DNA of 64,000 bases from Alphaproteobacteria bacterium (GCA_031549385.1 JAVBPW010000001.1:67348-131347), one strand, 5' to 3'; numbered from the stretch's first letter, positions 14,384-63,684 are shown. Notes: generated by a model not told the origin, from the sequence alone. Numbers and translations are program-made.

Positions 14384-14666
14384 TAAAATTGTGAAAACTA
14401 TGAAAAGATGACTTTTCACAGTGTTTCACAATAAATAATAATAAAAAATTATTTTTTAATTTAGGATTACCTTTTACGGTGGCGCCATTTGTCTTCTTCC
14501 CAGAGAATACCCTTGTTATGAATTACTATTTCAGTTTGCTCATTAATCGGAATTAATGTTATAAATAGTAAAGCATCGTCTAAATCTTCCCTTGTCAGAC
14601 TGCATGCAAAATCTTTTGTGATTTTGGTATTTAAATACACTTCTTTCATAAATTTAATTTTTAAGT

Positions 14667-17084
14667 TTAAACTTCTTTTGCAACGATATCTATTTTAAGA
14701 TTTTGGTTTTCAACAGGTTCTGACGCAGATCCAAATATTACTTCATCTGTTCTTGCTCCTGATATTATTACACCATGTAAATCTTTATCTAAATCACCTT
14801 CAATTGTTACTGATGATAATTTTGCTGTTGCACCTAATTTTTTATCTGTTCTTAACTTTCTTACAGTTTTTAATATATCTAATGCAACTTGCATTTTTGA
14901 TATATCCGTTTCTCTTTCTTGTTTGAACTCTGGGTAATTTGTTAAGTGAAGAGTTTGCTGTTTTTCCAAATCTTTATAAATCTTTGAATACAACTCTTCT
15001 GTTATAAATGGAATAAATATTGAGTATAGACCTATTATTTCACGCAACAATTCAAACAATGTTATTTGAGCTGAAAGCTTAGCATTTTCACCATATTTAG
15101 CCTCATTCCAGAATCGGTCTTTGATGTATTCCAAATATTGGTCACAGAATATATCATAGAAGAAATGATCTATATCTTCTCTTGCATTAAATGTGTCATA
15201 TTTATCCATGTTCTTACGAACTGACACAATTGTTTTATTTAATTCTGATAGAACCCAGCGGTCTTCTAAGAATCGGTCTTTGATTTCTATATTTTTATGA
15301 TTTTTTTGATCAAAATCTTCTAAATTCATAAGAACAAATTTTGATGCATTCCAAAGTTTATTTGTTAACTTTGTTCCTCTTTTTACTTCTTCTTCATTGT
15401 ATCTTAAATCTGTTCCAATTGGAGCGCACGATACCCAATAACGAAGAGCATCTACTCCAAATTTTTTTATAACATCAAGAGGATCAACACCGTTCCCTTT
15501 TGATTTAGAAAATTTTTGCCCTTTATTATCACGAACAAGCCCATGTAAATAAAGTGTTTTAAACGGAATTTCATTCATTGCATATAAAGACATCATTATC
15601 ATACGAGCACCCCAAAAAAATATAATATCTGGTCCCATAGACATATAGTCAGTTGGATAGTACTTTTTTAATTCTGGTGTTTGCTCTGGCCAACCAAGAG
15701 TTGAAAAACACCACAAACCTGAAGAAAACCAGGTATCTAATGTATCATTATCCTGTACTATTTTTTTATTTTTAGCAAGCTTAGTAGCCTCTTTTTCATT
15801 TATTGCACAATATTGATTTCCATCCTCATCATACCAAACAGGAATTTGATGCCCCCACCATAATTGACGTGATATAGTCCATGGGCGAATCTCTTTCATC
15901 CACGACATATATAAATTGTAACGATGTTCAGGTATGAATTTTATTTTACCTTGTTCTACTACTTCTATTGCTTTTTTAGCTAATAATTTTGCATTAACAT
16001 ACCATTGGGTTGTTAAATAAGGTTCAATTACACACCCTCCTCTTTCTGAATATGGAATTGGAATTGTTTTATCTTCTACTTTTACTAATTGACCTAATTC
16101 TTCTAAATCAATAATAACTTGTTTACGAGCATCAAACCTGTCCATACCTTGATATTTTTCAGGCACATTTTCATTTAATTTAGCATCTTTTGTTAAGATA
16201 TTTAACAATTCTAATTTATGTTTTTTTCCAACTTCATAATCATCAAAATCATGAGCAGGAGTAATCTTTACAGCACCTGTTCCTTTTTCTGGATCAGCAT
16301 GTTCGTCTGCTATGATTGGGATATAAATTTCTGTTAGCGGTATTTTTGCTGTTTTTCCAATTAAGTGTTTTAGTTTTGCATTTTCTGGATGAATAGCTAT
16401 TGCTTGGTCACCAAATAATGTTTCTGGACGGGTAGTTGCCACTTCAACAAATCCACCATCTTTTATTTCATAGTTAATATAATAAAACTTACCCTTTTCT
16501 TCTTGAGTTATAACTTCAAGATCTGAAACAGCTGTTTTTTGTTTTGGACACCAATTTACAAGACAAGTATCTTTATAAATTAAACCATCATTGTACATAC
16601 GAACAAAAATTTCATTTACTGACTTTGATAACCCTTCATCCATTGTAAATCTTTCTCTAGACCAATTAGGAGTTATTCCGAAAACATGTAATTGATTTAT
16701 TATCTTACCTCCATACTCTTCTTTCCATTTCCAAGCATAGTTTAATAACTCTTCTTTTGATAAGTTTGAAGGATTTATATCATTTTTAGATAAATCTTTT
16801 TCTACTAAAATCTGAGTTAATATAGCTGCATGATCAGTTCCTGGTTGCCATAATACGTCATAATTTGACATTCGCTTATAACGAGCAACTATATCTGTTG
16901 ATATATTATCAAGCGCATGTCCTAGATGTAAAATACCAGATACATTTGGAGGTGGCATCATTATTGAAAAAGAAACTTTAGATGAATTAACATCATTTTC
17001 CCAAAATTTATTACTATCCCAAAAATTTTGCCATTTTGTTTCTAATTCATGTTTTTCTATATTTTTACTAAGTTCAATTTTCAT
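14667..17084 (-). CDS. valS: Valine--tRNA ligase
   Basis: 805 aa with HLGH-type (LHLGHAL) and KMSKS (KFSKSKGN) class I motifs. Confidence 0.9.
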   Translation of the reverse strand: MKIELSKNIEKHELETKWQNFWDSNKFWENDVNSSKVSFSIMMPPPNVSGILHLGHALDNISTDIVARYKRMSNYDVLWQPGTDHAAILTQILVEKDLSKNDINPSNLSKEELLNYAWKWKEEYGGKIINQLHVFGITPNWSRERFTMDEGLSKSVNEIFVRMYNDGLIYKDTCLVNWCPKQKTAVSDLEVITQEEKGKFYYINYEIKDGGFVEVATTRPETLFGDQAIAIHPENAKLKHLIGKTAKIPLTEIYIPIIADEHADPEKGTGAVKITPAHDFDDYEVGKKHKLELLNILTKDAKLNENVPEKYQGMDRFDARKQVIIDLEELGQLVKVEDKTIPIPYSERGGCVIEPYLTTQWYVNAKLLAKKAIEVVEQGKIKFIPEHRYNLYMSWMKEIRPWTISRQLWWGHQIPVWYDEDGNQYCAINEKEATKLAKNKKIVQDNDTLDTWFSSGLWCFSTLGWPEQTPELKKYYPTDYMSMGPDIIFFWGARMIMMSLYAMNEIPFKTLYLHGLVRDNKGQKFSKSKGNGVDPLDVIKKFGVDALRYWVSCAPIGTDLRYNEEEVKRGTKLTNKLWNASKFVLMNLEDFDQKNHKNIEIKDRFLEDRWVLSELNKTIVSVRKNMDKYDTFNAREDIDHFFYDIFCDQYLEYIKDRFWNEAKYGENAKLSAQITLFELLREIIGLYSIFIPFITEELYSKIYKDLEKQQTLHLTNYPEFKQERETDISKMQVALDILKTVRKLRTDKKLGATAKLSSVTIEGDLDKDLHGVIISGARTDEVIFGSASEPVENQNLKIDIVAKEV

Positions 17085-20464: not shown

Positions 20465-20938
20465 ATGCAGAGAGAACCTATTACAGTTACAGGTAAACAA
20501 ATATTAGAACAAGAATTAAAATATTTAAAAGAAATTCAAAGACCAATCATTATCAATGAACTTGCTAATAACATAGAACTTGGTAATTTGCCTGAAAATG
20601 GTGGTTATGAAGCTGCTAAAGAAGAGCAAGGATTAACTGAAGCTAGAATTGCCGAAATTGAAAGTGCTCTTGCATCATCTTATGTTATAAACCCTTCTGA
20701 ATTTAAAGGCGATGGGAATATAAAATTTGGTGCAAGAGTTATGTTAGAAGATAATGATGGAGTTTTAAAAATTTACACAATTGTTGGTATTCCAGAAATA
20801 GATGTTCGTAAAGGACGCATTCCTTTCAATTCACCCATTGCTCGTGAATTAATTGGAAAAAAAGTTGGTGATCAAGTGATTGTTGTTACTCCAAGTGGCG
20901 AGAAAATTTTCGAAATTAAAAGAGTTGAATACACTTAG
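20465..20938 (+). CDS. GreA/GreB-family transcript cleavage factor paralog with divergent coiled-coil tip (GNLPENGGY)
   Basis: 157 aa aligning end-to-end with GreA. The position equivalent to catalytic Asp41 is Asn. Confidence 0.75.
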   Translation: MQREPITVTGKQILEQELKYLKEIQRPIIINELANNIELGNLPENGGYEAAKEEQGLTEARIAEIESALASSYVINPSEFKGDGNIKFGARVMLEDNDGVLKIYTIVGIPEIDVRKGRIPFNSPIARELIGKKVGDQVIVVTPSGEKIFEIKRVEYT

Positions 20939-21077
20939 AATCAAGCACAAATTTCTTTGTGCTTGATTTTGATAAATATTTCATTATATATGAGTTATGA
21001 AAATAAATTAATTTAACATAATGAAAATTAACCATCCATTATTGGAATGGTGTTTTTTTTTAAATGAGGTAAAAATT

Positions 21078-21551
21078 ATGGAACGTAAACCAATTACTCC
21101 TAGAGGTAAGGATTTATTAGAAGTAGAGTTAAAAGACTTGAAAGAAGTTAAGAGACCTGCTGTTATTAATGAAGTTGCATCTGCACGTGAAAAAGGCGAT
21201 TTGAAAGAAAATGCTGAATATCATGCTGCACGTGAAGCACAAGGATTAACTGAAGCTAGAATTACTGAAATCGAATCAATTCTTGCTACTTCTGATGTTA
21301 TAAATTCAAAAGATTTTAAAGGTGATACTCAAGTTAAATTTGGTGCAAAAGTTTCATTGGAAGATGAAGATGGATTAAAAAAAGAATATACTATTGTTGG
21401 TATTCCTGAAAGTGATGTTTCTAAAGGATTTATTCCTTTTAATTCACCTGTTGCAAGAGCGTTAATTGGAAAGAATATTGGTGAAGAAGTTGAAGTAAGA
21501 ACACCAGGTGGGGAAAAAATTTTTGTAATCAATGGAGTTGAATACGTTTAA
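21078..21551 (+). CDS. greA: Transcription elongation factor GreA (canonical GDLKENAEYHAAREAQG tip)
   Basis: 157 aa from the ATG at 21078, preceded by gaggtaaaa. Canonical acidic tip residues. Confidence 0.8.
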   Translation: MERKPITPRGKDLLEVELKDLKEVKRPAVINEVASAREKGDLKENAEYHAAREAQGLTEARITEIESILATSDVINSKDFKGDTQVKFGAKVSLEDEDGLKKEYTIVGIPESDVSKGFIPFNSPVARALIGKNIGEEVEVRTPGGEKIFVINGVEYV

Positions 21552-21663: not shown

Positions 21664-23823
21664 ATGAGAAAATTTTTATTAGTATTGACTATTTTATCAG
21701 TTGGTGTGCTGGGGGCTGCTAATGCGCAAACCCGCCAAACATCTGCACAAAAGACTGAAAATACAGGAGCTAGAGCTGCAAGAACTACAACTTCAACAAC
21801 TGCTGGATCAAGGGCAACTTCTACTTCTGGAAATAGAGGCACTTCTCAACGTGCTGCAAGAATGACTCCTAAAACTACTGCTACTACTGAAAGATCTGCT
21901 GTTTCTCGTCGTGCTGGTGTTGTGAAAACTGCTGCTCCTGCTGTTACTACTACAACTACTACTACTGCTGCGACTACAACTACTACTGCTAAAACTGAAG
22001 ATGAAATGACTGCTGCTGAATTACAAGCTGCTTATGATGAAAAAATGAGCAAAGTAGAAGCTAAATTAGGCGTGCAATCTCAATGCCAAGAAAAATTTGC
22101 TGAATGTATGGATGCTTCTTGTAAAGATGATACTTATGGAAGATGTCTATGTGCCGCTTCATATTCAGAACTTAATCCATTAAAAAAAGAAATTGAACAA
22201 TTGAATAAAGAAACTAATGCTTTACTTCAAGAAGAATTAGCTCGTGCTAAGATGACTGAAAAAGAAAGAGAATTTTATGAACAACAAAAAATTTCTTTAA
22301 ATCTTAAAGATGAAAGTGAAGAAATTGAATACGGCGCTGTTACTGCTGAATCTTTACTTGCTGATTATAAGAATGCTGGACAAGCTACTGGACCAAAAAC
22401 AGGAACAGTTTTATTTGGTGATGCTCATAAAGCATGTAAACCAATATTAGACGCATGTCCCGCTGAAAGCAAAGCTATTTTAACTTATTACCAAAATATG
22501 GCTAATAAAGAATGTTCTGTTGCTAAAGCTTCTTTAGAAGAACAAAAAGCTCAAGCTGTGTTTGCTAGACAAAAAGCAGAATTCACAGTTAAAAAAGCAG
22601 CTTATACTACTGTTTCTCAAAAATTAGATAATGCTACTTGTTTATCTGAATTGCAAGCTCTTGCTCTTACAGATTCTCTTTGTGGAAAAGATTATTCTAA
22701 ATGCTTAAACTGTAATGAAGATTTTAATGGAAAAACTTATAAATTAGAACTTTCTAATCCAGCTGATACTACTGATATGACTTCAGCTTATTCAAAATCA
22801 TTTACTGGATGTGCTGCTTCTAATGTTCAAAAGATGGTTGCAAGAAAAGAAGTTTATAATACTGTGTTAAATAAGTGTCAAGCTCCTACCGTTGCTTGGA
22901 ATACTTTTATGATTGATTTTGCTTCTACTATGGAAAAGGCTGAAAGAGATCAATTGTTTACTTATAATACTGAACAAAGAGAAAAAGAATTTAATGTTGC
23001 TGATACTTGTCAAAAAGATATTGATAAATGTTTAAAAGACATTTGTGGTACTGGATATATTTCATGTACTGCTAGAGAAAAAGCTGCTAATTATAACCTA
23101 GCTTTAATTGGTGAAGAAAATGCTCTTATCGCATGTAACAATGTATATGCAAGATGTGACTCAAGAGTTCAAGATGCTCAAAATAGCGGAAGCGACACTT
23201 CTTCTATAGATGTTGAATCTATCTGGACAGCTGCTTGGAAGAGAGCTCAAAACCAAGCTGATATAACATATCAAAAGAGATTAGCTGCTTTGATTAAAGA
23301 AACTGCTGACGTAACAAAAGCTGAATTGAAAATGGAATCTGAAATTGCAGAAGAACGTGCAAGAGCTGAAAATACTCAATCAAGAATTGGTGATGTGCTT
23401 GCTTCAGAAAATGCATTAGAAGATGCAAGACTTGGTGCTCAACTTGCTAAAGCTGAACTTGAAGAAGCTAAAAATAAAACTGAAAAAGAAGTTGCAAAAC
23501 AAACTGCTATGAATGCTGCTGGAATGGCTACAGCTCAAAGAGGTTGTGGAAAAGCTGCTGGTAAGTGGGAAAAGAATAATTGCTTCTGGACAGTTACTGC
23601 AAAAGGATACACAAGCAAACGTGGAGTTTTCGGACGTGAAAAATCTCGTGATGATAAAGAAAATGTTATAAAGTTTGCTGCTGGATCTAAGTTTACTTGT
23701 AACTCTGCTACTATGGGTGTACCAACAGATTATGGTTGTTCATGGGACGGTGGAACTGTACAAAATGGCCAGTCATATACATTCCCTTCATTGGAAGAAT
23801 TATCCAGTGACTCAGACTACTAA
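21664..23823 (+). CDS. Secreted Thr-rich / Cys-rich coiled-coil protein (719 aa)
   Basis: Signal peptide MRKFLLVLTILSVGVLGAANA. Thr-rich low-complexity region, more than 20 Cys, coiled-coil segments. A strong terminator follows. Confidence 0.6.
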   Translation: MRKFLLVLTILSVGVLGAANAQTRQTSAQKTENTGARAARTTTSTTAGSRATSTSGNRGTSQRAARMTPKTTATTERSAVSRRAGVVKTAAPAVTTTTTTTAATTTTTAKTEDEMTAAELQAAYDEKMSKVEAKLGVQSQCQEKFAECMDASCKDDTYGRCLCAASYSELNPLKKEIEQLNKETNALLQEELARAKMTEKEREFYEQQKISLNLKDESEEIEYGAVTAESLLADYKNAGQATGPKTGTVLFGDAHKACKPILDACPAESKAILTYYQNMANKECSVAKASLEEQKAQAVFARQKAEFTVKKAAYTTVSQKLDNATCLSELQALALTDSLCGKDYSKCLNCNEDFNGKTYKLELSNPADTTDMTSAYSKSFTGCAASNVQKMVARKEVYNTVLNKCQAPTVAWNTFMIDFASTMEKAERDQLFTYNTEQREKEFNVADTCQKDIDKCLKDICGTGYISCTAREKAANYNLALIGEENALIACNNVYARCDSRVQDAQNSGSDTSSIDVESIWTAAWKRAQNQADITYQKRLAALIKETADVTKAELKMESEIAEERARAENTQSRIGDVLASENALEDARLGAQLAKAELEEAKNKTEKEVAKQTAMNAAGMATAQRGCGKAAGKWEKNNCFWTVTAKGYTSKRGVFGREKSRDDKENVIKFAAGSKFTCNSATMGVPTDYGCSWDGGTVQNGQSYTFPSLEELSSDSDY

Positions 23824-23827
23824 AAAT

Positions 23828-23854
23828 AAAGCCTCATGAAAATGAGGCTTTTTT
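23828..23854 (+). terminator. Rho-independent terminator (aaagcctcatgaaaatgaggcttttttt)
   Basis: Perfect 8-bp stem followed by a T-run, directly after the 719-aa gene's stop. Confidence 0.7.
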
Positions 23855-23910
23855 AATTGACTTTTATTAATTCAAAACTTATATGTTTAATAAACTTAAA
23901 TATTAAATAT

Positions 23911-24057
23911 ATGAAAACATATACCGAAGGAGAACAATGGTCTACTCCTAAAGAAGACCTATCTTTTATACAAAGACACCCTTTAATCTCTGTTATCGGA
24001 GGTTGGGGCCTTGTAATAGCTGCAATAGTTATTATTGTATGGTTATTATTACCATAA
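23911..24057 (+). CDS. Small membrane peptide 1 (48 aa, C-terminal TM)
   Basis: Reads MKTYTEGEQWSTPKEDLSFIQRHPLISVIGGWGLVIAAIVIIVWLLLP. Followed by the hairpin gcctctatatgaggc plus a T-run. Confidence 0.35.
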   Translation: MKTYTEGEQWSTPKEDLSFIQRHPLISVIGGWGLVIAAIVIIVWLLLP

Positions 24058-24159
24058 AACTTATTATAAATGCCTCTATATGAGGCTTTTTTCATTTTAT
24101 TATTGCTTTTTGTCAATAAATTATCTATAATTAATAATATAAACTTAAAAAATAAATAT

Positions 24160-24378
24160 ATGAACGCTAAAATTAAACAAGGATTAAACCTTGTAAAAAA
24201 AATGGGAGTACTTGAATACTTAGAGGCAATTTGCTGGCTTGGTATAGCATTTATGTTGTTACTGGTTGCAATTGAGTACAGAACTGAAATAACTTATGCT
24301 TGGGTTTTGTCGATAGTTTTTTTAGTTATTACTATTGGAGTTAAACGAATGCTAAAAGAAGAAAAATTAAAACAATAA
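24160..24378 (+). CDS. Small membrane peptide 2 (72 aa, 2 TM)
   Basis: Reads MNAKIKQGLNLVKKMGVLEYLEAICWLGIAFMLLLVAIEYRTEITYAWVLSIVFLVITIGVKRML... Confidence 0.35.
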   Translation: MNAKIKQGLNLVKKMGVLEYLEAICWLGIAFMLLLVAIEYRTEITYAWVLSIVFLVITIGVKRMLKEEKLKQ

Positions 24379-24381
24379 AAT

Positions 24382-24516
24382 ATGGCAAACGTTAGCTTTC
24401 CTCCGAAAAATGAAACTTATAAACCTAATGGAAATTGGTTTTGGAGTTTTGTTATTCCTGTAGCTATGCTCCTTGCAATGATAGGATATCTTATCTTTAA
24501 ATGCATGGGATATTAA
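24382..24516 (+). CDS. Small membrane peptide 3 (44 aa, 1 TM)
   Basis: Reads MANVSFPPKNETYKPNGNWFWSFVIPVAMLLAMIGYLIFKCMGY. Followed by the hairpin ggtcggtaacgacc plus a T-run. Confidence 0.3.
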   Translation: MANVSFPPKNETYKPNGNWFWSFVIPVAMLLAMIGYLIFKCMGY

Positions 24517-24561
24517 GGTCGGTAACGACCTTTTTTATTTAAAATAATTAAACCTAAATAA

Positions 24562-24732
24562 ATGAAAAAATTTTTTGAAATTGTATTTTTTATATTAACC
24601 ATGCTTCTTGGGGCTGGTATGGGAGCTTGTATGTTCCTTACAAAATTTAATGGCTTTCTTTTTGCACTTTTTATCTTTTGGGTATTTGTAGCTGCAAAAA
24701 AAGCAAAAGAAGTTAATGAACCTTTAAATTAA
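24562..24732 (+). CDS. Small membrane peptide 4 (56 aa, 2 TM)
   Basis: Reads MKKFFEIVFFILTMLLGAGMGACMFLTKFNGFLFALFIFWVFVAAKKAKEVNEPLN. Confidence 0.3.
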   Translation: MKKFFEIVFFILTMLLGAGMGACMFLTKFNGFLFALFIFWVFVAAKKAKEVNEPLN

Positions 24733-24738
24733 AACAAT

Positions 24739-24885
24739 ATGCATAATATTCCAGTTGGCTATTTAAAGCCTGATGATTTTGACGATTTTCCAAAAGGTTG
24801 TCGTATTGGTGCTCTTGTCATAATTGCAATTTTTCTTATTGGTATTGTAATAGGACTATTGTATACATTTGATTTAATATTTTGA
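24739..24885 (+). CDS. Small membrane peptide 5 (48 aa, 1 TM)
   Basis: Reads MHNIPVGYLKPDDFDDFPKGCRIGALVIIAIFLIGIVIGLLYTFDLIF. Followed by a bidirectional terminator tggtcgatgaaaatcgacca. Confidence 0.3.
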   Translation: MHNIPVGYLKPDDFDDFPKGCRIGALVIIAIFLIGIVIGLLYTFDLIF

Positions 24886-24944
24886 TAAATAAAAATGGTC
24901 GATGAAAATCGACCATTTTTGTTTTAAAAGAATCGGTGGAGATT

Positions 24945-26840
24945 TTACTTTTCTTGATATTCTGCATCAACGACTTTTTCGTCTTTTGCAGATTCTTGTT
25001 GGTCTGCCTGCCCTGCTCCAGCTTGTGATTGTTGTTGAGCTTGGTAGATTGCTTGACCTAGTTTCATTAAAGCATTTGTTAGATTTTCTGCTTTTGTATT
25101 TAATTCTGATACTTCAACACCTTCTTTCTTCAAAGATTCTTTTGCATCATTTAAAGCAGTTTCAATTTCAGTTCTTTCAGCTGCTGAAACTTTATCGCCA
25201 TGTTCTTTTAAAGACTTTTCGCCTTCATGAACTGCGTGTTCTAATTTATTTTTTGCTTCAACCATTTCTTTTTTCTTAGCATCATCACTTGCGTGAGATT
25301 CTGCTTCTTTTACCATTCGTTCTATATCAGCATCTGATAATCCACCGTCTGATTTAATAGAGATAGATTGTTCTTTTCCTGTACCTTTATCTTTTGCAGA
25401 TACATGAACTATACCGTTTGCGTCGATATCAAATGTAACTTCAATTTGTGGAACACCACGTGGAGCATTTGGAATGCCTACTAAATCAAAGTTTCCTAGT
25501 AACTTGTTGTCTGATGCCATTGGACGTTCACCTTGAAGAACTCTTATTGTCACTGCTGTTTGATTATCGTCTGCAGTTGAGAATACTTGAGATTTCTTTG
25601 TAGGAATTGTTGTGTTACGGTCGATTAATTTTGTAAATACTCCACCGTATGTTTCAATACCTAATGATAATGGTGTTACGTCTAATAATAACACATCTTT
25701 AACATCTCCTTTTAAAACTCCACCTTGGATTGCTGCACCAAGTGCTACACATTCGTCTGGGTTTATTCCTTTATTAGGTTCTTTGCCAAAGAATTCTTTT
25801 ACTATTTCTGCTACTTTAGGCATACGTGTTTGACCACCAACTAATAAAACTTCTTTGATTTCTGATTTTGAAATTTTAGCATCTTCTAATGCTTTTTGAC
25901 ATGGTATTAAAGTTTTCTTAATTAAGTCTGTTACTAAGCTTTCAAGTTTTGCTCTTGTGAACTTTAAATTGAAATGCTTTGGTCCTGTTGCATCTGCTGT
26001 GATAAATGGTAAATTTATATCTGTTTCAAAAGAAGATGATAATTCTATCTTTGCTTTTTCAGCTGCTTCTTTTAATCTTTGTAGAGCTATTTTATCGCCT
26101 AATAAATCAACCCCTGTTTGCTTTTTGAAATCATCTGCAAAATAATCTATGATTACTTTATCAAAATCTTCGCCACCTAAGAATGTATCTCCATTAGTTG
26201 ATTTTACTTCAAATACTCCATCACCAATTTCAAGAATTGAAATATCAAATGTACCACCACCTAAGTCATATACTGCTATTAGACCTGTTTGACCTTTATC
26301 TAAACCATAAGAAAGAGCAGCAGCTGTTGGTTCGTTGATAATACGTAATACGTCTAATCCAGCAATTTTACCTGCATCTTTTGTTGCTTGTCTTTGAGAG
26401 TCGTTAAAGTAAGCTGGAACTGTGATAACAGCTTGAGTTACTTTCTCGCCTAAATAGCTTTCTGCATCTTGTTTCATTTTTTGTAAGATTTTTGCAGAAA
26501 TTTCTGATGGAGAGTATTTTTTACCTTTTACTTCTACCCATGCATCACCATTGTCAGCTTGAACTATTTTAAATGGTACAGATTTTATTTCTTTTTGAAC
26601 TTCTGGATCTGTGAACTTTCTTCCTATTAATCTCTTTACTGTGTAAACAGTATTTTCTGGATTTGTCACCATTTGATTTCTTGCAGGTGTTCCAGTTAAT
26701 GTTTCTGTATCAGTAAATGCAACTACGGAAGGAGTTGTTCTTCTTCCTTCTTTATTCTCAATTACCTTTGGTGTTGAGCCATCCATAAAGGCAAAACATG
26801 AGTTTGTTGTTCCTAAATCTATTCCTATCACTTTTGACAT
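24945..26840 (-). CDS. dnaK: Chaperone DnaK (Hsp70)
   Basis: 631 aa with [18 protein letters not shown] and other Hsp70 signatures. No grpE or dnaJ adjacent. Confidence 0.95.
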
Positions 26841-26876
26841 TGTTTTTTACTCCTTTTAAGTATCTTATGGTTCTGT

Positions 26877-26905
26877 ATATAGGGCATTTAACATACCCTT
26901 TCAAG
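26877..26905 (-). promoter_or_regulatory. Sigma-32 (RpoH)-type heat-shock promoter for dnaK: CTTGAAA-14 nt-CCCTATAT
   Basis: The minus strand reads cCTTGAAAgggtatgttaaatgCCCTATATac, 36 nt upstream of the dnaK ATG. It matches the CTTGAAA / CCCCATNT consensus. Confidence 0.45.
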
Positions 26906-57966: not shown

Positions 57967-59157
57967 TTAATTCCTTTCGTCTATAAAGCCCATTATGTGT
58001 AGATAGTATCCTAAAGCACCACCTTGAAGTAGTTGCAATCTTATATAATAACCTCCATCTTGATTTACTGGATAACTATCTACTACTACAGTTACTCCAC
58101 TTAATGGATTTGTTTTTACTAATAATTTTGCAGGGTCAGTTGAATGATATCTCATTTCAATTAAAAAATTATATCCTTCTACAGATAGTATCGGACGAAT
58201 CAAGTTTCCAAAGCCAATATCAACAAATTCAAAATTTTTATTTACTATTTGATAATCTAGTTGAATTTTTGGAGTGAATACTCTTACTGCTCCTCCTGCT
58301 TGTTCAAATGTAGTTATTTGAAGAATATTACCTGTTGAATCTGTTTTTATTATTCCTACTCTTCTGAACTTTGTAAAACTTCCTGAATTTTTTATTAAGT
58401 TAACTGCATTTTTGTCTGTATCAAACCCTGCGTCTACTTCCATTGTTTTTGGATTTAGTAAAACAAATACATAATAAACTTGATTATTTAACATAACCAT
58501 GTTTGGTGCAAGACCACCTGAAGTTGTTCCTTTTTCAAAATTCAAATTTAACTTCTTACTTATTGGAGATTTTAATACTATATCACAAGTATCCTCATAA
58601 TCTCTTGCACGACCTTTAGAAATTACTATTTCTTTATTGATATTAGTTGTAAGATTTGAAACTAATAAACCTTCTATATATCTTGGAGGAAGACCTACAT
58701 ATTCCATTAGAGTTTCTTTATATATGTGAGGAGTTATTGCTTTATCTGTATTTTGACCATCAATTGCTTCTTGTTTTGTCGCAAGAGAGATTACCCCTCT
58801 TTTGTTTGAACTTGCATAGCTTTCTTGAGTGCAATTGCTTAAGTCATTTTTTAATAAACCTTTTGCAAGAAGAGTTGATGTGTCTACATTGCTTAAATCA
58901 GTTTTTACTATACCTTTGTCTGTAAATACTTCATCTGATACGTTTGATAAATTTGAATCTGTTAAACCTTTATTTAATAAAGTTTGAAGTTCTACATTTT
59001 CTAAATCTTCCCTTGCTAGAGGCATTCCACCTACTGTTTTGTTGTCATGAATCACTCCTGTTGATTTGTCTGTGTCTACTGTAATTTCTCCTGAAAGACC
59101 GGTAAACAACCCATGTTTGGCAGTTGAGCCACGACGAAATTGTACTGCTTTTGTCAT
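57967..59157 (-). CDS. Phage tail-fibre-like protein (396 aa)
   Basis: SD AAAGGAAT. N-terminus MTKAVQFRRGSTA...GEITVDTD...VIHDNKTVGG resembles the tail-fibre/Mtd N-domain. Repeated DLSNV units. SLATKQEAIDGQNTDKAITP matches the widespread tail-fibre ATxxEAxxGTDxxKAxTP motif. Confidence 0.5.
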   Translation of the reverse strand: MTKAVQFRRGSTAKHGLFTGLSGEITVDTDKSTGVIHDNKTVGGMPLAREDLENVELQTLLNKGLTDSNLSNVSDEVFTDKGIVKTDLSNVDTSTLLAKGLLKNDLSNCTQESYASSNKRGVISLATKQEAIDGQNTDKAITPHIYKETLMEYVGLPPRYIEGLLVSNLTTNINKEIVISKGRARDYEDTCDIVLKSPISKKLNLNFEKGTTSGGLAPNMVMLNNQVYYVFVLLNPKTMEVDAGFDTDKNAVNLIKNSGSFTKFRRVGIIKTDSTGNILQITTFEQAGGAVRVFTPKIQLDYQIVNKNFEFVDIGFGNLIRPILSVEGYNFLIEMRYHSTDPAKLLVKTNPLSGVTVVVDSYPVNQDGGYYIRLQLLQGGALGYYLHIMGFIDERN

Positions 59158-59185
59158 TTTATATTCCTTTATATTTAAAATAAAA

Positions 59186-59215
59186 AATACCAAAATAAAT
59201 TAATATTTTGGTATT
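59186..59215 (-). terminator. Perfect palindrome aataccaaaataaattaatattttggtatt flanked by A/T runs
   Basis: 12-bp stem with A6 upstream and A6 downstream on the plus strand, so a T-run on the minus strand. Sits between the membrane-protein array and the tail-fibre gene. Confidence 0.5.
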
Positions 59216-59281
59216 AAAAAATGGGCACTATTGTCCCATAAATCTTTGTTTATTATACAAAATATTTTTCAAAAAGTCAAG

Positions 59282-60637
59282 TTATTTCTTTTTATATATC
59301 TTTGCCATAATACTTTTTGCTTGAGCTTTTTGAGTATTTTCAACACTTGTAACTTGAGCATTTATGTAATTTTTTACGTTGTTTGTAAAGCTTGCTTCTT
59401 TTAGTAAACCTTCAGCTTCTTTTTTTAATATTGTAAACATATAAAAACCTAATTGTAAGCCAAATATCATCTTTAACCAGTTAATCCAATTTGCAGGATT
59501 GTGGAAACCTGCTATTAGACCCGCAATTACTGTTCCTTTTATTTCACCATTGTCATCATAAAATACACTGTCTGGATTCATTAAATCTTTTGCTTGAAGC
59601 ATATTGTCACCTGCCGACATACCTGTTGGAATATCAATTACCATTTCACCAAGAACGTATTGTAAGAAGATTCCTAAAATTCCAATAGCTACCGACCAAA
59701 ATAGAAAACCCAATACTCCATTCTTAAACATATTAACTATATTAGCTCGCCAACCACTTGCAAATTTTAAAAATCCACTTTCTTCATTTTCTAATGCATA
59801 TGAAAATATAGCTAGAGGGAATAACATTATAGACAAACATATCTGAAGTATTACAGATATCATCATCCATAACATTTCAAGCCCAAGACTAAACCCTTTG
59901 GTTATGAAAAAAAATCCTACAGAAAAAACTACATATGACATATATTCAAGTGCTTTACTTACAATTCTGCCAACATAAGGAATCATGTTTGCAAAAAATG
60001 AACCTATAAATTCTCCTGCTGATGTTACCGTCATCCAAGTTCCTAGCCTCATTAAAACATCAATTTGTTTTGCACTTATGTTTACTGGGCAAACTATTTT
60101 TGCTTTTGTTTCTGCAGAGATTGCCTCATCAGCTTCTGGATTTGCTTCTTTTGTGTAATTTTCTACACACTTTTCATAATTACTATCTACATTAACCATA
60201 AATCCTGTTGTATAGGTGGAGGCTAAATTTAATATTGGATCAACTGTTATTTCAAAAAGAAACTTTTGATTAGTGTTTAAAAGTATTAATGAAATAAGAA
60301 CAAAGAAGAGTCTTTTCCAAAAACTTTTTCTTAAAAATTTATAATCTTCTTGATTTAATATTACTCTTATTACTATTCCCGCTATGTAAAACAAAAAGAA
60401 TATGTAGATCAAATTTCTTACTAATTTAGCTAAAAGTTCTGCAGTTGAATATGCAAGTGGAGATAAAGCATCAAGAACAATCATGCCTAATGATGATATC
60501 CAATTAGGTATATTTCCTGTTACTTCAATAACATCTCTTGTTATTACTCTGGTACCAGTTTTAAGAACTTGAGCATAAAGAGCATCACAGCTTAAACATA
60601 ATAATACAATCATAAATAGGAATAAAATTTTCTTCAT
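59282..60637 (-). CDS. Polytopic membrane protein paralog 3 (451 aa), signal peptide; VirB6/TrbL-like architecture
   Basis: Signal peptide MKKILFLFMIVLLCLSCDALYA. Multiple TM helices. Shares LxxPLxI...E...W motif block with the two upstream genes. Confidence 0.45.
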   Translation of the reverse strand: MKKILFLFMIVLLCLSCDALYAQVLKTGTRVITRDVIEVTGNIPNWISSLGMIVLDALSPLAYSTAELLAKLVRNLIYIFFLFYIAGIVIRVILNQEDYKFLRKSFWKRLFFVLISLILLNTNQKFLFEITVDPILNLASTYTTGFMVNVDSNYEKCVENYTKEANPEADEAISAETKAKIVCPVNISAKQIDVLMRLGTWMTVTSAGEFIGSFFANMIPYVGRIVSKALEYMSYVVFSVGFFFITKGFSLGLEMLWMMISVILQICLSIMLFPLAIFSYALENEESGFLKFASGWRANIVNMFKNGVLGFLFWSVAIGILGIFLQYVLGEMVIDIPTGMSAGDNMLQAKDLMNPDSVFYDDNGEIKGTVIAGLIAGFHNPANWINWLKMIFGLQLGFYMFTILKKEAEGLLKEASFTNNVKNYINAQVTSVENTQKAQAKSIMAKIYKKK

Positions 60638-62055
60638 TATTTCAATTTACCTCCTATGAAATCCATTATAAAGTTTCCACCATTTTTTAATTTATCAAGA
60701 CCTTTATTGAATAAATCTATTCCTAGGTTGCTTAAATTATTAATCAATAAATCTTCTTTATTTAGTTTTACCTTTCCTTTTATAAAATTAAACATTTCAA
60801 ATGTTAGTTTTGATAATGCCATAATTATTAAAAGCATCATTAATCCCCAATTTGTGTCTGGAGTTGGTAATTTTTTGTAACAATCTAATGTTTGTTTGTT
60901 TAATTTAGACATATCTATATTAGTACTCCAAGTGTCACCTTTAAGACTTGAACTTTTTATTATTTCAACACATTTATCATATTCTTGCTTAGCTTTTGAT
61001 GCTTGCCTTGTATCAACTTTATTAAAATAGTCAGGGAAAAGATATGAATAATTATCTTGAGGGCCTGGAAAATATATGTCACCAACCTTCATATAAACTG
61101 CATATACAACAACAAATGCTATTGATAATGTTACCATATAGAGAGCAGCATTTATTACGGCATTAAGAGCAAAAGATTTCATCCAATCAACTGGTTTTTT
61201 AAGAGCTGTTTCAAATACCCATCCCACCAGAAGTAATGGTAAGATTATAACTGGAATTAATAATGATATTAAAATATCTAACATCATAAAGGCTATATAT
61301 AAAAGCAATGAGAAGAAAGCTAGGAATATCCAATAACCAGATAGAGTTGCTGTTATACTCATCATACTCATTCCCATAGACATTAGCTGTCCACCACCTT
61401 GCATTCCACCCATCATAATTAATGATGTTGATGATACATAACATAAGAAGTCTTTTTTCATTTCATTTGAAAATACAGAATCATCTGCCCCGCCACCTTC
61501 TGACTTATAGTTATCACACATACCTTCTGGAAGTTGTAGGATACTTTGAGAAACATAACTTCCCATTTTCATTACTGGACCTATATAACCTCTTGCTGCT
61601 AATTTTACAAAATTGATTGTTGAATTTGTAAATGCTCCTAATAATATTGTTATTAAAACAGCTCTCCATAATCTGCCTATTATTTTGCTTAGATATTGTT
61701 TTGGAGTTGTTTCATTTACTTTTAGAATTGTTTCAAATGTATAATATATTGTCCATAATACTAATCCTATTGCTAATAATTGCATTGATGATGAGATTAA
61801 AAAGTCAAGAGCATAGTCTGCGGCTACTCTAAATACATCAAATAATTTTGCTAATAAATCACAACCTATACATGACGATGAATTTATAACATCACATCCT
61901 GGTTGTGTTGGATCGCATCCTATTGTACTTGTTAGCCAATCAGTTACATTGCCACCACCAGCACCTTTGTTTGTTGGGGATGCAAAAAATATTACAAGAA
62001 ACGGTAGTACCGAAAATGTAAAATATTTAATAAGCATAAATATAATTTTTGCCAT
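60637..62055 (-). CDS. Polytopic membrane protein paralog 2 (472 aa), signal peptide; VirB6/TrbL-like architecture
   Basis: Signal peptide plus TM bundle. GGM/Q-rich loop. ISLLIPVIILPLLLVGWVFE...VDWMKSF block. Confidence 0.45.
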   Translation of the reverse strand: MAKIIFMLIKYFTFSVLPFLVIFFASPTNKGAGGGNVTDWLTSTIGCDPTQPGCDVINSSSCIGCDLLAKLFDVFRVAADYALDFLISSSMQLLAIGLVLWTIYYTFETILKVNETTPKQYLSKIIGRLWRAVLITILLGAFTNSTINFVKLAARGYIGPVMKMGSYVSQSILQLPEGMCDNYKSEGGGADDSVFSNEMKKDFLCYVSSTSLIMMGGMQGGGQLMSMGMSMMSITATLSGYWIFLAFFSLLLYIAFMMLDILISLLIPVIILPLLLVGWVFETALKKPVDWMKSFALNAVINAALYMVTLSIAFVVVYAVYMKVGDIYFPGPQDNYSYLFPDYFNKVDTRQASKAKQEYDKCVEIIKSSSLKGDTWSTNIDMSKLNKQTLDCYKKLPTPDTNWGLMMLLIIMALSKLTFEMFNFIKGKVKLNKEDLLINNLSNLGIDLFNKGLDKLKNGGNFIMDFIGGKLK

Positions 62056-62058
62056 CTC

Positions 62059-63684
62059 TTAAAACCATCCTTTTATTTTTCCAAAAACATTTTTAACACC
62101 ACCCCAAGCTTGCTTTCCATAAGCCCTTACACCACGAGCATATCTTGGGTCTAATCTTAAATTTGCAGCGTCTTTGAATTTAGTTTTTGTATCAAGAACA
62201 TCTTTTACGCCATCAATTGCATTGTCTTCAAATTTTTTACCATAACCGCTGTCAAAATCACTTATATCTTTATCAAAGTATTTTACAAATTCATTTGTAT
62301 ATTTTGGTATTTGTTTTATGAAATGACTTGATATAAAACCTATGATTATTAATTCAAATAATCCAGCTCCAAAATAGCCTAATTTTTCTGCTATTTCAGG
62401 TGTTATGTTTTCTGCATCTGGTAAAGATATAGCTTTTAACATAAGCATTATTAGCATAGTAAAGAATGCTGTAAAAATACTTATGAAACAAATTTGAACT
62501 AGACTTTTCCAAATATCTTTGAATGAAAAGAAATTTGTTTTGTAATCAATTACCCAGAAAGCTATTGATAATGGTAAGAAGAATAGACATTTACATATTT
62601 CTATTAACGGTGAAATAAGATACATAGAAATTGCAAAAAGATTTTTTAAGAATAAAAATATTAATATTAATCCTGGAATTATTTTGAATTTACCTAGTAA
62701 ACTGAAACCTAATAAAACAGGTTCCATTAAAACTTTGAAACTGCTTTGAACTAAACACATATAGTTTTGTTTGAATGAGTTTCCTAGCATTTCAAATTCA
62801 CCACCCATGTTAGAAAGATTATATGTACATGAGAAATCTTTACCCATTATTCCTTGGACTAAAATTGACGTTAGATCAAATATTGGCTTTGCAATAAATT
62901 CTATTATTTCTTTTGGAATAAAAAATGTAGTTGGAGCTGGGAGAAGGACTAAACCTGCTATTATTAATTTTACAGCTTGCTTTACATATTTTTTATTCAT
63001 ATCTTTTGGGCTCATAGTAGGTCCCGTGATTCCACCATATATACCTTTGAAAATATCCCAACCTAAAAATATTATTAGAAGGCATGCTGTCATATAAAAT
63101 ACAAAATCTTTTATGTTCACAAAAAACATGTACGTATATTGAGAAATAAAATTATAAAAAGTTTCATATATAGGACAAATGAAACAACCTGATTTGAAAG
63201 TTTTAATAGCCATAAAGAAACCTTCGTTATAACATCCTGGTCTCCAATCTATTGTCTTTATATCATAGCTTCCTATTTTTAGTTGAGATTTTGACTTAGT
63301 TTCTTTTGTTGGAGCCATAACGCCTAATGTTTGACCAAATGGGGATAAAAATTGACCTCTGGAAACTGATACTGGTCTGTATGCTGAAGATAATATATTA
63401 AACTCATCAAATCCATAATCAGAACAAATATCCCATGCAATTCTTCCTCTTTTTTCAAATTGCCCTTTGTCATTTAAAAATACATTTTGAGTTGATTTAT
63501 CCATTTTAATTCTTTCATCTATTATTTGACTTATAGTTGAAGAATCAATTAGCATTCTTCTTTGGCTTGCTATTTGATGAATTTCATTTGCTATACCTGG
63601 ATTTAAATCAAATGATATAAATATTGATGGATTTGTATCTTGTGGGAAAAGCTTTAAATAATCAGAATAACTTATTTTACCCAT
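62059..63684 (-). CDS. Polytopic membrane protein paralog 1 (541 aa from ATG; probably N-terminally extended to about 63858 with a signal peptide)
   Basis: Large periplasmic-like N-domain then TM bundle (CLFFLPLSIAFWVIDY...KDIWKSL). The in-frame upstream reads IKQLRIIFAVLTFVLFANNAHA, preceded by AGGAGG. Confidence 0.45.
   Translation of the reverse strand: MGKISYSDYLKLFPQDTNPSIFISFDLNPGIANEIHQIASQRRMLIDSSTISQIIDERIKMDKSTQNVFLNDKGQFEKRGRIAWDICSDYGFDEFNILSSAYRPVSVSRGQFLSPFGQTLGVMAPTKETKSKSQLKIGSYDIKTIDWRPGCYNEGFFMAIKTFKSGCFICPIYETFYNFISQYTYMFFVNIKDFVFYMTACLLIIFLGWDIFKGIYGGITGPTMSPKDMNKKYVKQAVKLIIAGLVLLPAPTTFFIPKEIIEFIAKPIFDLTSILVQGIMGKDFSCTYNLSNMGGEFEMLGNSFKQNYMCLVQSSFKVLMEPVLLGFSLLGKFKIIPGLILIFLFLKNLFAISMYLISPLIEICKCLFFLPLSIAFWVIDYKTNFFSFKDIWKSLVQICFISIFTAFFTMLIMLMLKAISLPDAENITPEIAEKLGYFGAGLFELIIIGFISSHFIKQIPKYTNEFVKYFDKDISDFDSGYGKKFEDNAIDGVKDVLDTKTKFKDAANLRLDPRYARGVRAYGKQAWGGVKNVFGKIKGWF

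Follow-up and report, generated by a model that had tools for sequence, protein, structure and literature searches.

A cluster of five candidate small membrane-protein genes next to dnaK in an uncultured alphaproteobacterium

Introduction

Small bacterial proteins are often transmembrane, and they are thought to work by binding larger proteins or complexes (PMC10723866). AcrZ, MgtS, MgrB, KdpF and CydX are of this kind, with 30-70 aa, one or two transmembrane (TM) helices and a location in the inner membrane, and such proteins often go unannotated (PMC10723866). Here we analyze five small open reading frames (ORFs), named p1 to p5 in their order on the DNA, whose predicted products are like these proteins in the same respects. 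They occupy the 1.1-kb spacer between the stop codon of a gene for a 719-aa secreted protein and the stop codon of the convergent dnaK in an alphaproteobacterium (GCA_031549385.1, JAVBPW010000001.1:67348-131347; this stretch of 64,000 nt, or 64 kb, is the window referred to below). The locus differs from the described examples in that five unrelated peptides are clustered, lack Shine-Dalgarno (SD) sequences and have no obvious partner operon adjoining; searches of Pfam and NCBIfam gave no family match to AcrZ, MgtS, MgrB, KdpF, CydX, CcoQ, Pmp3 or ATP synthase c.

A second point of comparison is offered by type I toxin-antitoxin loci. The ibs/sib, ldr/rdl and zorO/orzO loci resemble the present one in carrying several small hydrophobic ORFs per long intergenic region, with their own transcription signals. 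Their peptides are close paralogs, each with an antisense or divergent small RNA, whereas here the repetition is limited to the upstream non-coding block, the peptides show no relationship and the sequence reveals no RNA antitoxin. In tandem type I loci the similarity also reaches beyond the coding region (PMC2887945), while similarity outside the coding region is seen here solely in front of p1 and p2.

An earlier note, made from the sequence alone, had likened the cluster to small membrane toxins of the type I kind, to bacteriocin-like peptides or to small regulatory membrane proteins. Given that no paralogy, known family, antitoxin RNA or export genes were found, the first two likenesses are not supported, and the third appears to be the most plausible of the three. 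With moderate confidence, based on coding statistics and the layout of transcription signals, we argue that the five ORFs are real, translated membrane-protein genes arranged in three short transcription units.

Coding signal and predicted proteins

The five ORFs stand on the plus strand exactly where the earlier note had placed them, encode 44-72 aa and all begin with ATG (Table 1). The same note had named chance as the alternative, with AT-rich spacer DNA being read as hydrophobic peptides, and this reading is rejected by shuffles, codon scores and hydrophobicity controls. Among 2000 shuffles of the spacer (1121 nt) that kept its dinucleotide composition, the mean count of ATG ORFs of 44 aa or longer on a single strand was 0.6 and the highest was 3; none (0/2000) matched the five observed, which cover 909 nt. 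When scored by codon log-odds, with 34 long genes from the window as the training set, the five ORFs range from 0.21 to 0.48, compared with 0.32-0.78 for the reference genes and a mean of -0.43 for wrong-frame ORFs, and for each ORF the annotated frame is the best-scoring of the six. GC content at the three codon positions (GC1/GC2/GC3) has the same gradient in the five ORFs (0.42/0.30/0.20) as in the reference genes (0.44/0.34/0.15).

As TM-like controls, ORFs of 44-80 aa were simulated with a first-order Markov model based on the spacer sequence, and those of matching hydrophobicity were retained. Their codon log-odds average -0.165±0.18, with 0-0.7% of them attaining the observed values, and their GC1-GC3 difference averages -0.004±0.08, compared with 0.11-0.35 in the five ORFs (0-6% attain the observed values). 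Just 5% of simulated ORFs, and 16% of the spurious ORFs found in other parts of the window, are as hydrophobic at their peak as the least hydrophobic of the five peptides. Between the ORFs the composition is non-coding at each of the three codon positions (GC 0.06-0.20), with a score of ~0. Taken together, the shuffle, codon and hydrophobicity statistics mean that AT-richness alone does not explain five out of five. The reading frame common to the five ORFs is also that of the 719-aa gene, with a chance of 1/81 for the five and 1/243 when the neighbor is included.

Annotation had been expected to miss the cluster, and the gene calls in the public protein collection bear this out: p3, p4 and p5 have no call, while p1 and p2 are present only as longest-ORF versions of 66 aa (TTG start) and 102 aa, respectively. 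The in-frame upstream extensions used by the gene callers (p1 from TTG 23857; p2 from ATG 24070) are non-coding in composition, so the shorter ATG starts are the better ones. Inside p1 (23926-23951) there is a strong SD-like sequence, GAAGGAG; 4 nt past it lies an out-of-frame ATG (23937), whose product is just MVYS-stop.

Hydropathy assigns one TM-length segment each to p1, p3 and p5 and two each to p2 and p4, and the hydrophobic helices of all five peptides are flanked by charged residues, in agreement with the one or two helices and charged termini described in the earlier note. In p1, p3 and p5, a hydrophilic N-terminus of 18-27 aa precedes a TM-length helix that reaches nearly to the C-terminus. 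The two TM segments of p2 and p4 are joined by a short loop and followed by basic tails (KRMLKEEKLKQ in p2, KKAKEVNEPLN in p4). A single-sequence AlphaFold model of p2 (mean pLDDT 72) likewise places helices at residues 3-14, 17-39 and 45-71, corresponding to an N-terminal helix and a helical hairpin. Small-xxx-small motifs can be read within the helices of p1 (GGWG), p4 (GAGMGAC) and p5 (GIVIG).

At the protein level no pairwise alignment among the five peptides beats shuffles; a weak 27-nt in-register DNA match links p1 and p5 in their TM regions. Poor motif fit by eye and the lack of Pfam matches led us to reject Flp pilin, light-harvesting polypeptides, ATP synthase subunit c and Pmp3. The N-terminus of p4 (residues 1-23, 24562-24630; MKKFFEIVFFILTMLLGAGMGAC) fits the general lipoprotein signal/lipobox pattern (M-G-A-C) by eye, which in a TM helix may be coincidental.

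Leaders and transcription units

The single unusual feature of the cluster is a conserved leader without a Shine-Dalgarno sequence. The block before p1, consisting of a terminator, a -35 box and the leader, aligns with the block before p2 with a score of 50 (23±4 in shuffles, 0/500). At its core is a 26-nt repeat, ATAAACTTAAA[T/A]A[T/A]TAAATATATGAA, which extends from about the expected transcription start into the second codon; the p2 leader and first five coding bases are identical to the p1 copy at 24 of the 26 positions. When up to three mismatches are allowed, this pattern occurs three times in the window (0.00 expected), each time at the head of a small ORF. The third copy, on the minus strand, precedes a 60-aa non-hydrophobic ORF (14467-14649) that begins just past the leuS stop and has a weak coding score (0.11) and no family match. 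In predicted mRNA folds the leader is mostly unpaired, with a weak hairpin at the p1 start, and such an open, AU-rich leader would be compatible with SD-free initiation. An exact 14-mer, AAATTAAAACAATA, is present in both the p2/p3 and the p4/p5 junctions in different codon registers; it points to either an RNA-level signal or the common descent of two putative bicistronic modules.

Terminator-like sites are more frequent in the region than in shuffles (9 vs. 2.8±1.6) and are placed exactly after p1 and p3; promoter-like hexamers are not enriched (18 vs. 23.5 expected). The observation that several of the ORFs are followed by their own hairpin and T-run is correct for p1, p3 and p5. The putative promoter boxes of p1 and p2 are similar to those in the promoter that serves the 719-aa gene (TTGTTA-17-TATAAT). 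Based on the positions of these terminators and promoters, the ORFs would form three short transcription units: p1, p2-p3 and p4-p5.

Control by sigma32, shared with dnaK, was considered as well. A heat-shock promoter of textbook form precedes dnaK (CTTGAAA-N14-CCCTATAT, ~26875-26903, minus strand) and is missing from the small ORFs, which are thus not in the heat-shock unit. A CtrA box was considered by eye and dropped, as the motif does not fit.

Table 1. Positions and properties of the five ORFs, their putative expression signals and the flanking genes, in window coordinates.
Feature	Position	Strand	Description
p1	23911-24057	+	48 aa, ATG; hydrophilic N-terminal 27 aa, predicted TM helix at extreme C-terminus
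p2	24160-24378	+	72 aa, ATG; predicted amphipathic N-terminal helix, two-TM hairpin, basic C-tail
p3	24382-24516	+	44 aa, ATG; hydrophilic N-terminus, predicted C-terminal TM; start 3 nt past p2 stop
p4	24562-24732	+	56 aa, ATG; predicted two-TM hairpin, GAGMGAC motif, basic C-tail
p5	24739-24885	+	48 aa, ATG; acidic N-terminus, predicted C-terminal TM (GIVIG); start 6 nt past p4 stop
p1 leader	23890-23910	+	21 nt, AU-rich, without SD, ATAAACTTAAATATTAAATAT; part of 26-nt repeat
p2 leader	24139-24159	+	21 nt, without SD, ATAAACTTAAAAAATAAATAT
p4 shortened leader variant	within 24540-24561	+	AAACCTAAATAA / AAACCTAAATAAATG
Third leader copy	14467-14668	-	AAACTTAAAAATTAAATTTATG; 22-nt leader without SD; overlaps leuS stop
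Intrinsic terminator after 719-aa gene	23828-23856	bidirectional	AAAGCCTCAT-GAAA-ATGAGGCTTT + T-run; first element of duplicated upstream block
p1 sigma70-like promoter (putative)	23857-23887	+	TTGACT, 17 nt, TATATG (or TATGTT at 19 nt); aligns with p2 block
p1 intrinsic terminator	24072-24094	+	GCCTC-TATAT-GAGGC + TTTTTT; paralog of 23842-23858 terminator arm
p2-p3 sigma70-like promoter(s) (putative)	24103-24138	+	TTGCTT-17-TATAAT (24103-24131) and/or TTGTCA-17-AATAAT (24110-24138)
p2-p3 intrinsic terminator	24515-24542	+ only	AAGGTCG-GTAA-CGACCTT + T-run; overlaps p3 stop
p4 -10-like box	24540-24545	+	TAAAAT; weak, -35 unconvincing
Terminator after p5	24887-24924	bidirectional	17-nt arms, inverted repeat; common to p4-p5 and convergent dnaK
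719-aa secreted-protein gene	21664-23823	+	signal-peptide-like N-terminus, read from sequence
dnaK	24945-26840	-	Pfam HSP70, E = 1e-272

Host and flanking genes

The host is an uncultured, deep-branching alphaproteobacterial lineage without sequenced relatives; its GC content is ~30%, and its placement is judged from the best DnaK matches. The closest match to its DnaK is at most 75% identical in a collection of 5.8 billion clustered proteins and at most 73% identical among GTDB representatives and JGI metagenome contigs. The organism is known from one 455-kb NCBI contig and one Logan assembly (SRR23967709); in the latter the locus is 100% identical over 13 kb, and hence there is no polymorphism to analyze.

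We collected 160 DnaK-anchored loci, all of them at most 75% identical and not syntenic with the locus studied here. A tblastn search of the peptides against the first 80 of these, together with the organism's own contig (L001), recovered only the peptides themselves. What follows downstream of dnaK differs in each of the distant relatives inspected, and no cluster of small TM genes lies downstream of dnaK in the AT-rich relatives L002 and L017. L017, from a Candidatus Enterousia metagenome-assembled genome, contains the sole distant relative of the 719-aa protein, a 787-aa protein encoded near dnaK (L017 3207-5570; 20% identity, E = 1e-15), and there too no small-TM cluster stands beside it.

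Both flanking genes had been named correctly in the earlier note, as a secreted-protein gene and dnaK (Table 1). The 719-aa protein has no family match in Pfam or NCBIfam and, the L017 protein aside, is an orphan too, since searches of GTDB genomes, JGI metagenomes and the 5.8-billion-protein collection recovered nothing related; it is Thr-rich and Cys-rich, with coiled-coil-like stretches. The neighborhood is one of housekeeping genes (leuS, pgi, mutL, two copies of greA, dnaK, ftsI and mraW). The greA copies form a tandem pair (20465-20938 and 21021-21551, plus strand) with 65% identity at the protein level, and dnaJ does not follow dnaK here or in the four closest dnaK loci. Farther away (57967-63684, minus strand), a 408-aa protein carries an N-terminal Mtd_N (major tropism determinant) domain (E = 1.4e-9) and could be the target of a diversity-generating retroelement or a tail-fibre-like protein; three large orphan ORFs adjoin it, without a Pfam match.

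Discussion

If the five ORFs are lineage-specific genes for small inner-membrane proteins, p1 and p2 would be transcribed from sigma70-type promoters ~20 nt upstream, while expression of p4-p5 would come from a weak promoter or from read-through. Translation would initiate without an SD sequence on the open, AU-rich conserved leader, and p3 and p5 may be translated by coupling or re-initiation because their starts lie 3 and 6 nt past the upstream stop codons. Following the positive-inside rule, p2 and p4 would insert as N-in/C-in hairpins, and p1, p3 and p5 would be tail-anchored single-pass peptides with cytoplasmic N-termini. Both putative bicistronic units have one architecture, in which a two-TM hairpin with a basic tail is followed by a tail-anchored one-TM peptide, and this common architecture, together with the junction motif, suggests paired products that act together in the membrane. 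Each unit probably yields a small heteromeric membrane module that would bind or modulate a larger membrane component. By analogy with characterized small membrane proteins (PMC10723866), an accessory or modulator role is favored for the peptides, and it is put forward here tentatively. More speculative still, with a small chance of being right in our view, is the idea that the leader, AAACTTAAA-N3-TAAAT-N2-ATG, is a dedicated expression or regulation signal of a small-protein regulon, and that p2-p3 and p4-p5 represent a new two-component small membrane module.

Several results weigh against the five ORFs being translated genes. An SD core precedes none of the five starts (0/5), although it is found before 24 of the 34 reference genes and 14 of the 16 other small genes in the window (including those for ribosomal proteins, FtsL and GatC); the probability of this outcome is ~0.002 if the five were typical genes. 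The coding score of p3 is the lowest (0.21), p4-p5 lack a convincing promoter, and the use of one reading frame by all five ORFs could hint at a decayed longer gene. When the concatenated peptides were compared exhaustively with 1.84 billion representative proteins by HMMER phmmer, only self matches came back (the long gene calls of p1 and p2). There was no match for the five peptides in Pfam or NCBIfam (E ≤ 1, noise aside), PHROGs, PADLOC or PDB, and the phage, plasmid and IMG/VR viral collections held no relatives. Without homologs, there is no evolutionary evidence of purifying selection.

A word-index search with the concatenated peptides was empty too, yet it missed the self clusters P0002 and P0003, and its negatives are therefore untrustworthy for short hydrophobic queries. 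As the closest DnaK is 75% identical and there are no close relatives, the missing homologs are uninformative about selection. The earlier note had held that the cluster would be spurious if it showed neither a translation signal nor conservation and if the peptides were a by-product of AT-rich composition. Neither an SD sequence nor conservation is detectable, in a lineage that lacks the relatives by which conservation could be judged, and chance composition is rejected.

The best-surviving alternative is that the region is non-functional, consisting of fragments of a decayed polytopic membrane-protein gene or of untranslated ORFs that keep a coding-like composition. The reading frame shared by the five ORFs and the upstream 719-aa gene (1/81 for the five) is consistent with decay, as are the total of about seven TM segments, the lack of SD sequences and homologs, and the omission of p3-p5 by the gene callers. 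We nevertheless regard it as unlikely. The segments between the ORFs are non-coding at all codon positions and contain well-formed terminators and promoter boxes, with one block duplicated, and no frameshifts are found despite many A/T runs. Moreover, the codon structure is as strong as that of real genes and would be expected to decay quickly without selection. A pseudogene of a known family was tried and rejected, since the X-joined 342-aa translation matches no Pfam family.

Less probable again is a type I toxin-antitoxin array. On this reading the peptides would act as toxins that damage membranes, and antisense or trans-acting small RNAs would curb their translation, possibly with the leader as the RNA target. 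All five peptides are small (the guide value for type I toxins being 70 aa or less), hydrophobic and equipped with a predicted TM segment, as type I toxins are. Their length (44-72 aa), hydrophobicity, unusually long intergenic region and own putative promoters and terminators coincide in part with the criteria by which Fozo et al. 2010 searched (PMC2887945), and the conserved 5' leader could serve as a shared pairing site. The tandem copies are dissimilar at the protein level, however, with no significant pair, whereas the published tandem criterion for type I toxins is at least 50% aa identity (PMC2887945). Pfam, NCBIfam and the exhaustive phmmer search matched no known toxin family (Hok, Ldr, Ibs, TisB, Fst and others), and the Rfam antitoxin RNA families were all far below threshold (best fstAT, 22 bits vs. 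72).

Antisense small RNAs overlapping the ORFs, for which the earlier note had suggested a search, were not found in the DNA analyzed either: the minus strand holds no coherent promoter-terminator unit, promoter-like hexamers are not enriched, no Rfam antitoxin comes near threshold, and the window contains no complementary copy of the leader. With ~21 nt, the leaders are mostly unstructured and have no SD sequence to sequester, and there is no long structured 5' UTR. In p1, p3 and p5 the TM helix is C-terminal, whereas most type I toxins have the reverse arrangement. The type I reading thus fails on most of the features testable from the DNA and is not supported.

Least probable, with only a very slight chance in our estimate, are bacteriocin-type peptide and immunity modules or phage-derived holin-like lysis proteins, one partner permeabilizing the membrane and the other protecting. 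The two TM helices and charged C-terminal tail predicted for p2 and p4 also occur in class II holins and many immunity proteins (the tail being highly charged in the case of the holins), and the second Met of p2, M15, which follows Lys-Lys, recalls holin dual-start motifs. Class II bacteriocin/immunity pairs are likewise tiny co-transcribed genes, one product being a small multi-TM protein, and the layout suggests co-transcribed pairs here as well; residues 30-31 of p1 are Gly-Gly, and positions -4, -7, -12 and -15 are hydrophobic, like those of double-glycine leaders. Unlike class II holins, the peptides have no lysis cassette or prophage context, no PHROG holin or phage family match (best holin E = 0.19) and no phage, plasmid or viral relatives. 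Within ~10 kb there is no endolysin, C39-peptidase ABC transporter or prophage gene, and the surroundings are housekeeping genes. Unlike class II bacteriocin pairs, the locus has no recognizable leader/mature-peptide layout and no export or processing genes nearby, and its host is a Gram-negative alphaproteobacterium; no combination of a leader with a cationic or amphiphilic mature peptide was found, the GG motif is confined to p1, and what would be the 'mature' p1, with 17 aa that are all hydrophobic, does not resemble known bacteriocins.

If the five ORFs are translated as proposed, five unannotated membrane proteins, three of which no public gene call includes, would be added to the genome of a lineage without sequenced relatives, and the cluster would be a compact case of SD-free translation in an organism that otherwise uses SD sequences. 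In other respects the cluster is a further instance of small hydrophobic proteins being under-annotated, as is known, and no long-standing question is opened. The duplicated leader is a concrete candidate sequence for a shared translational or regulatory signal.

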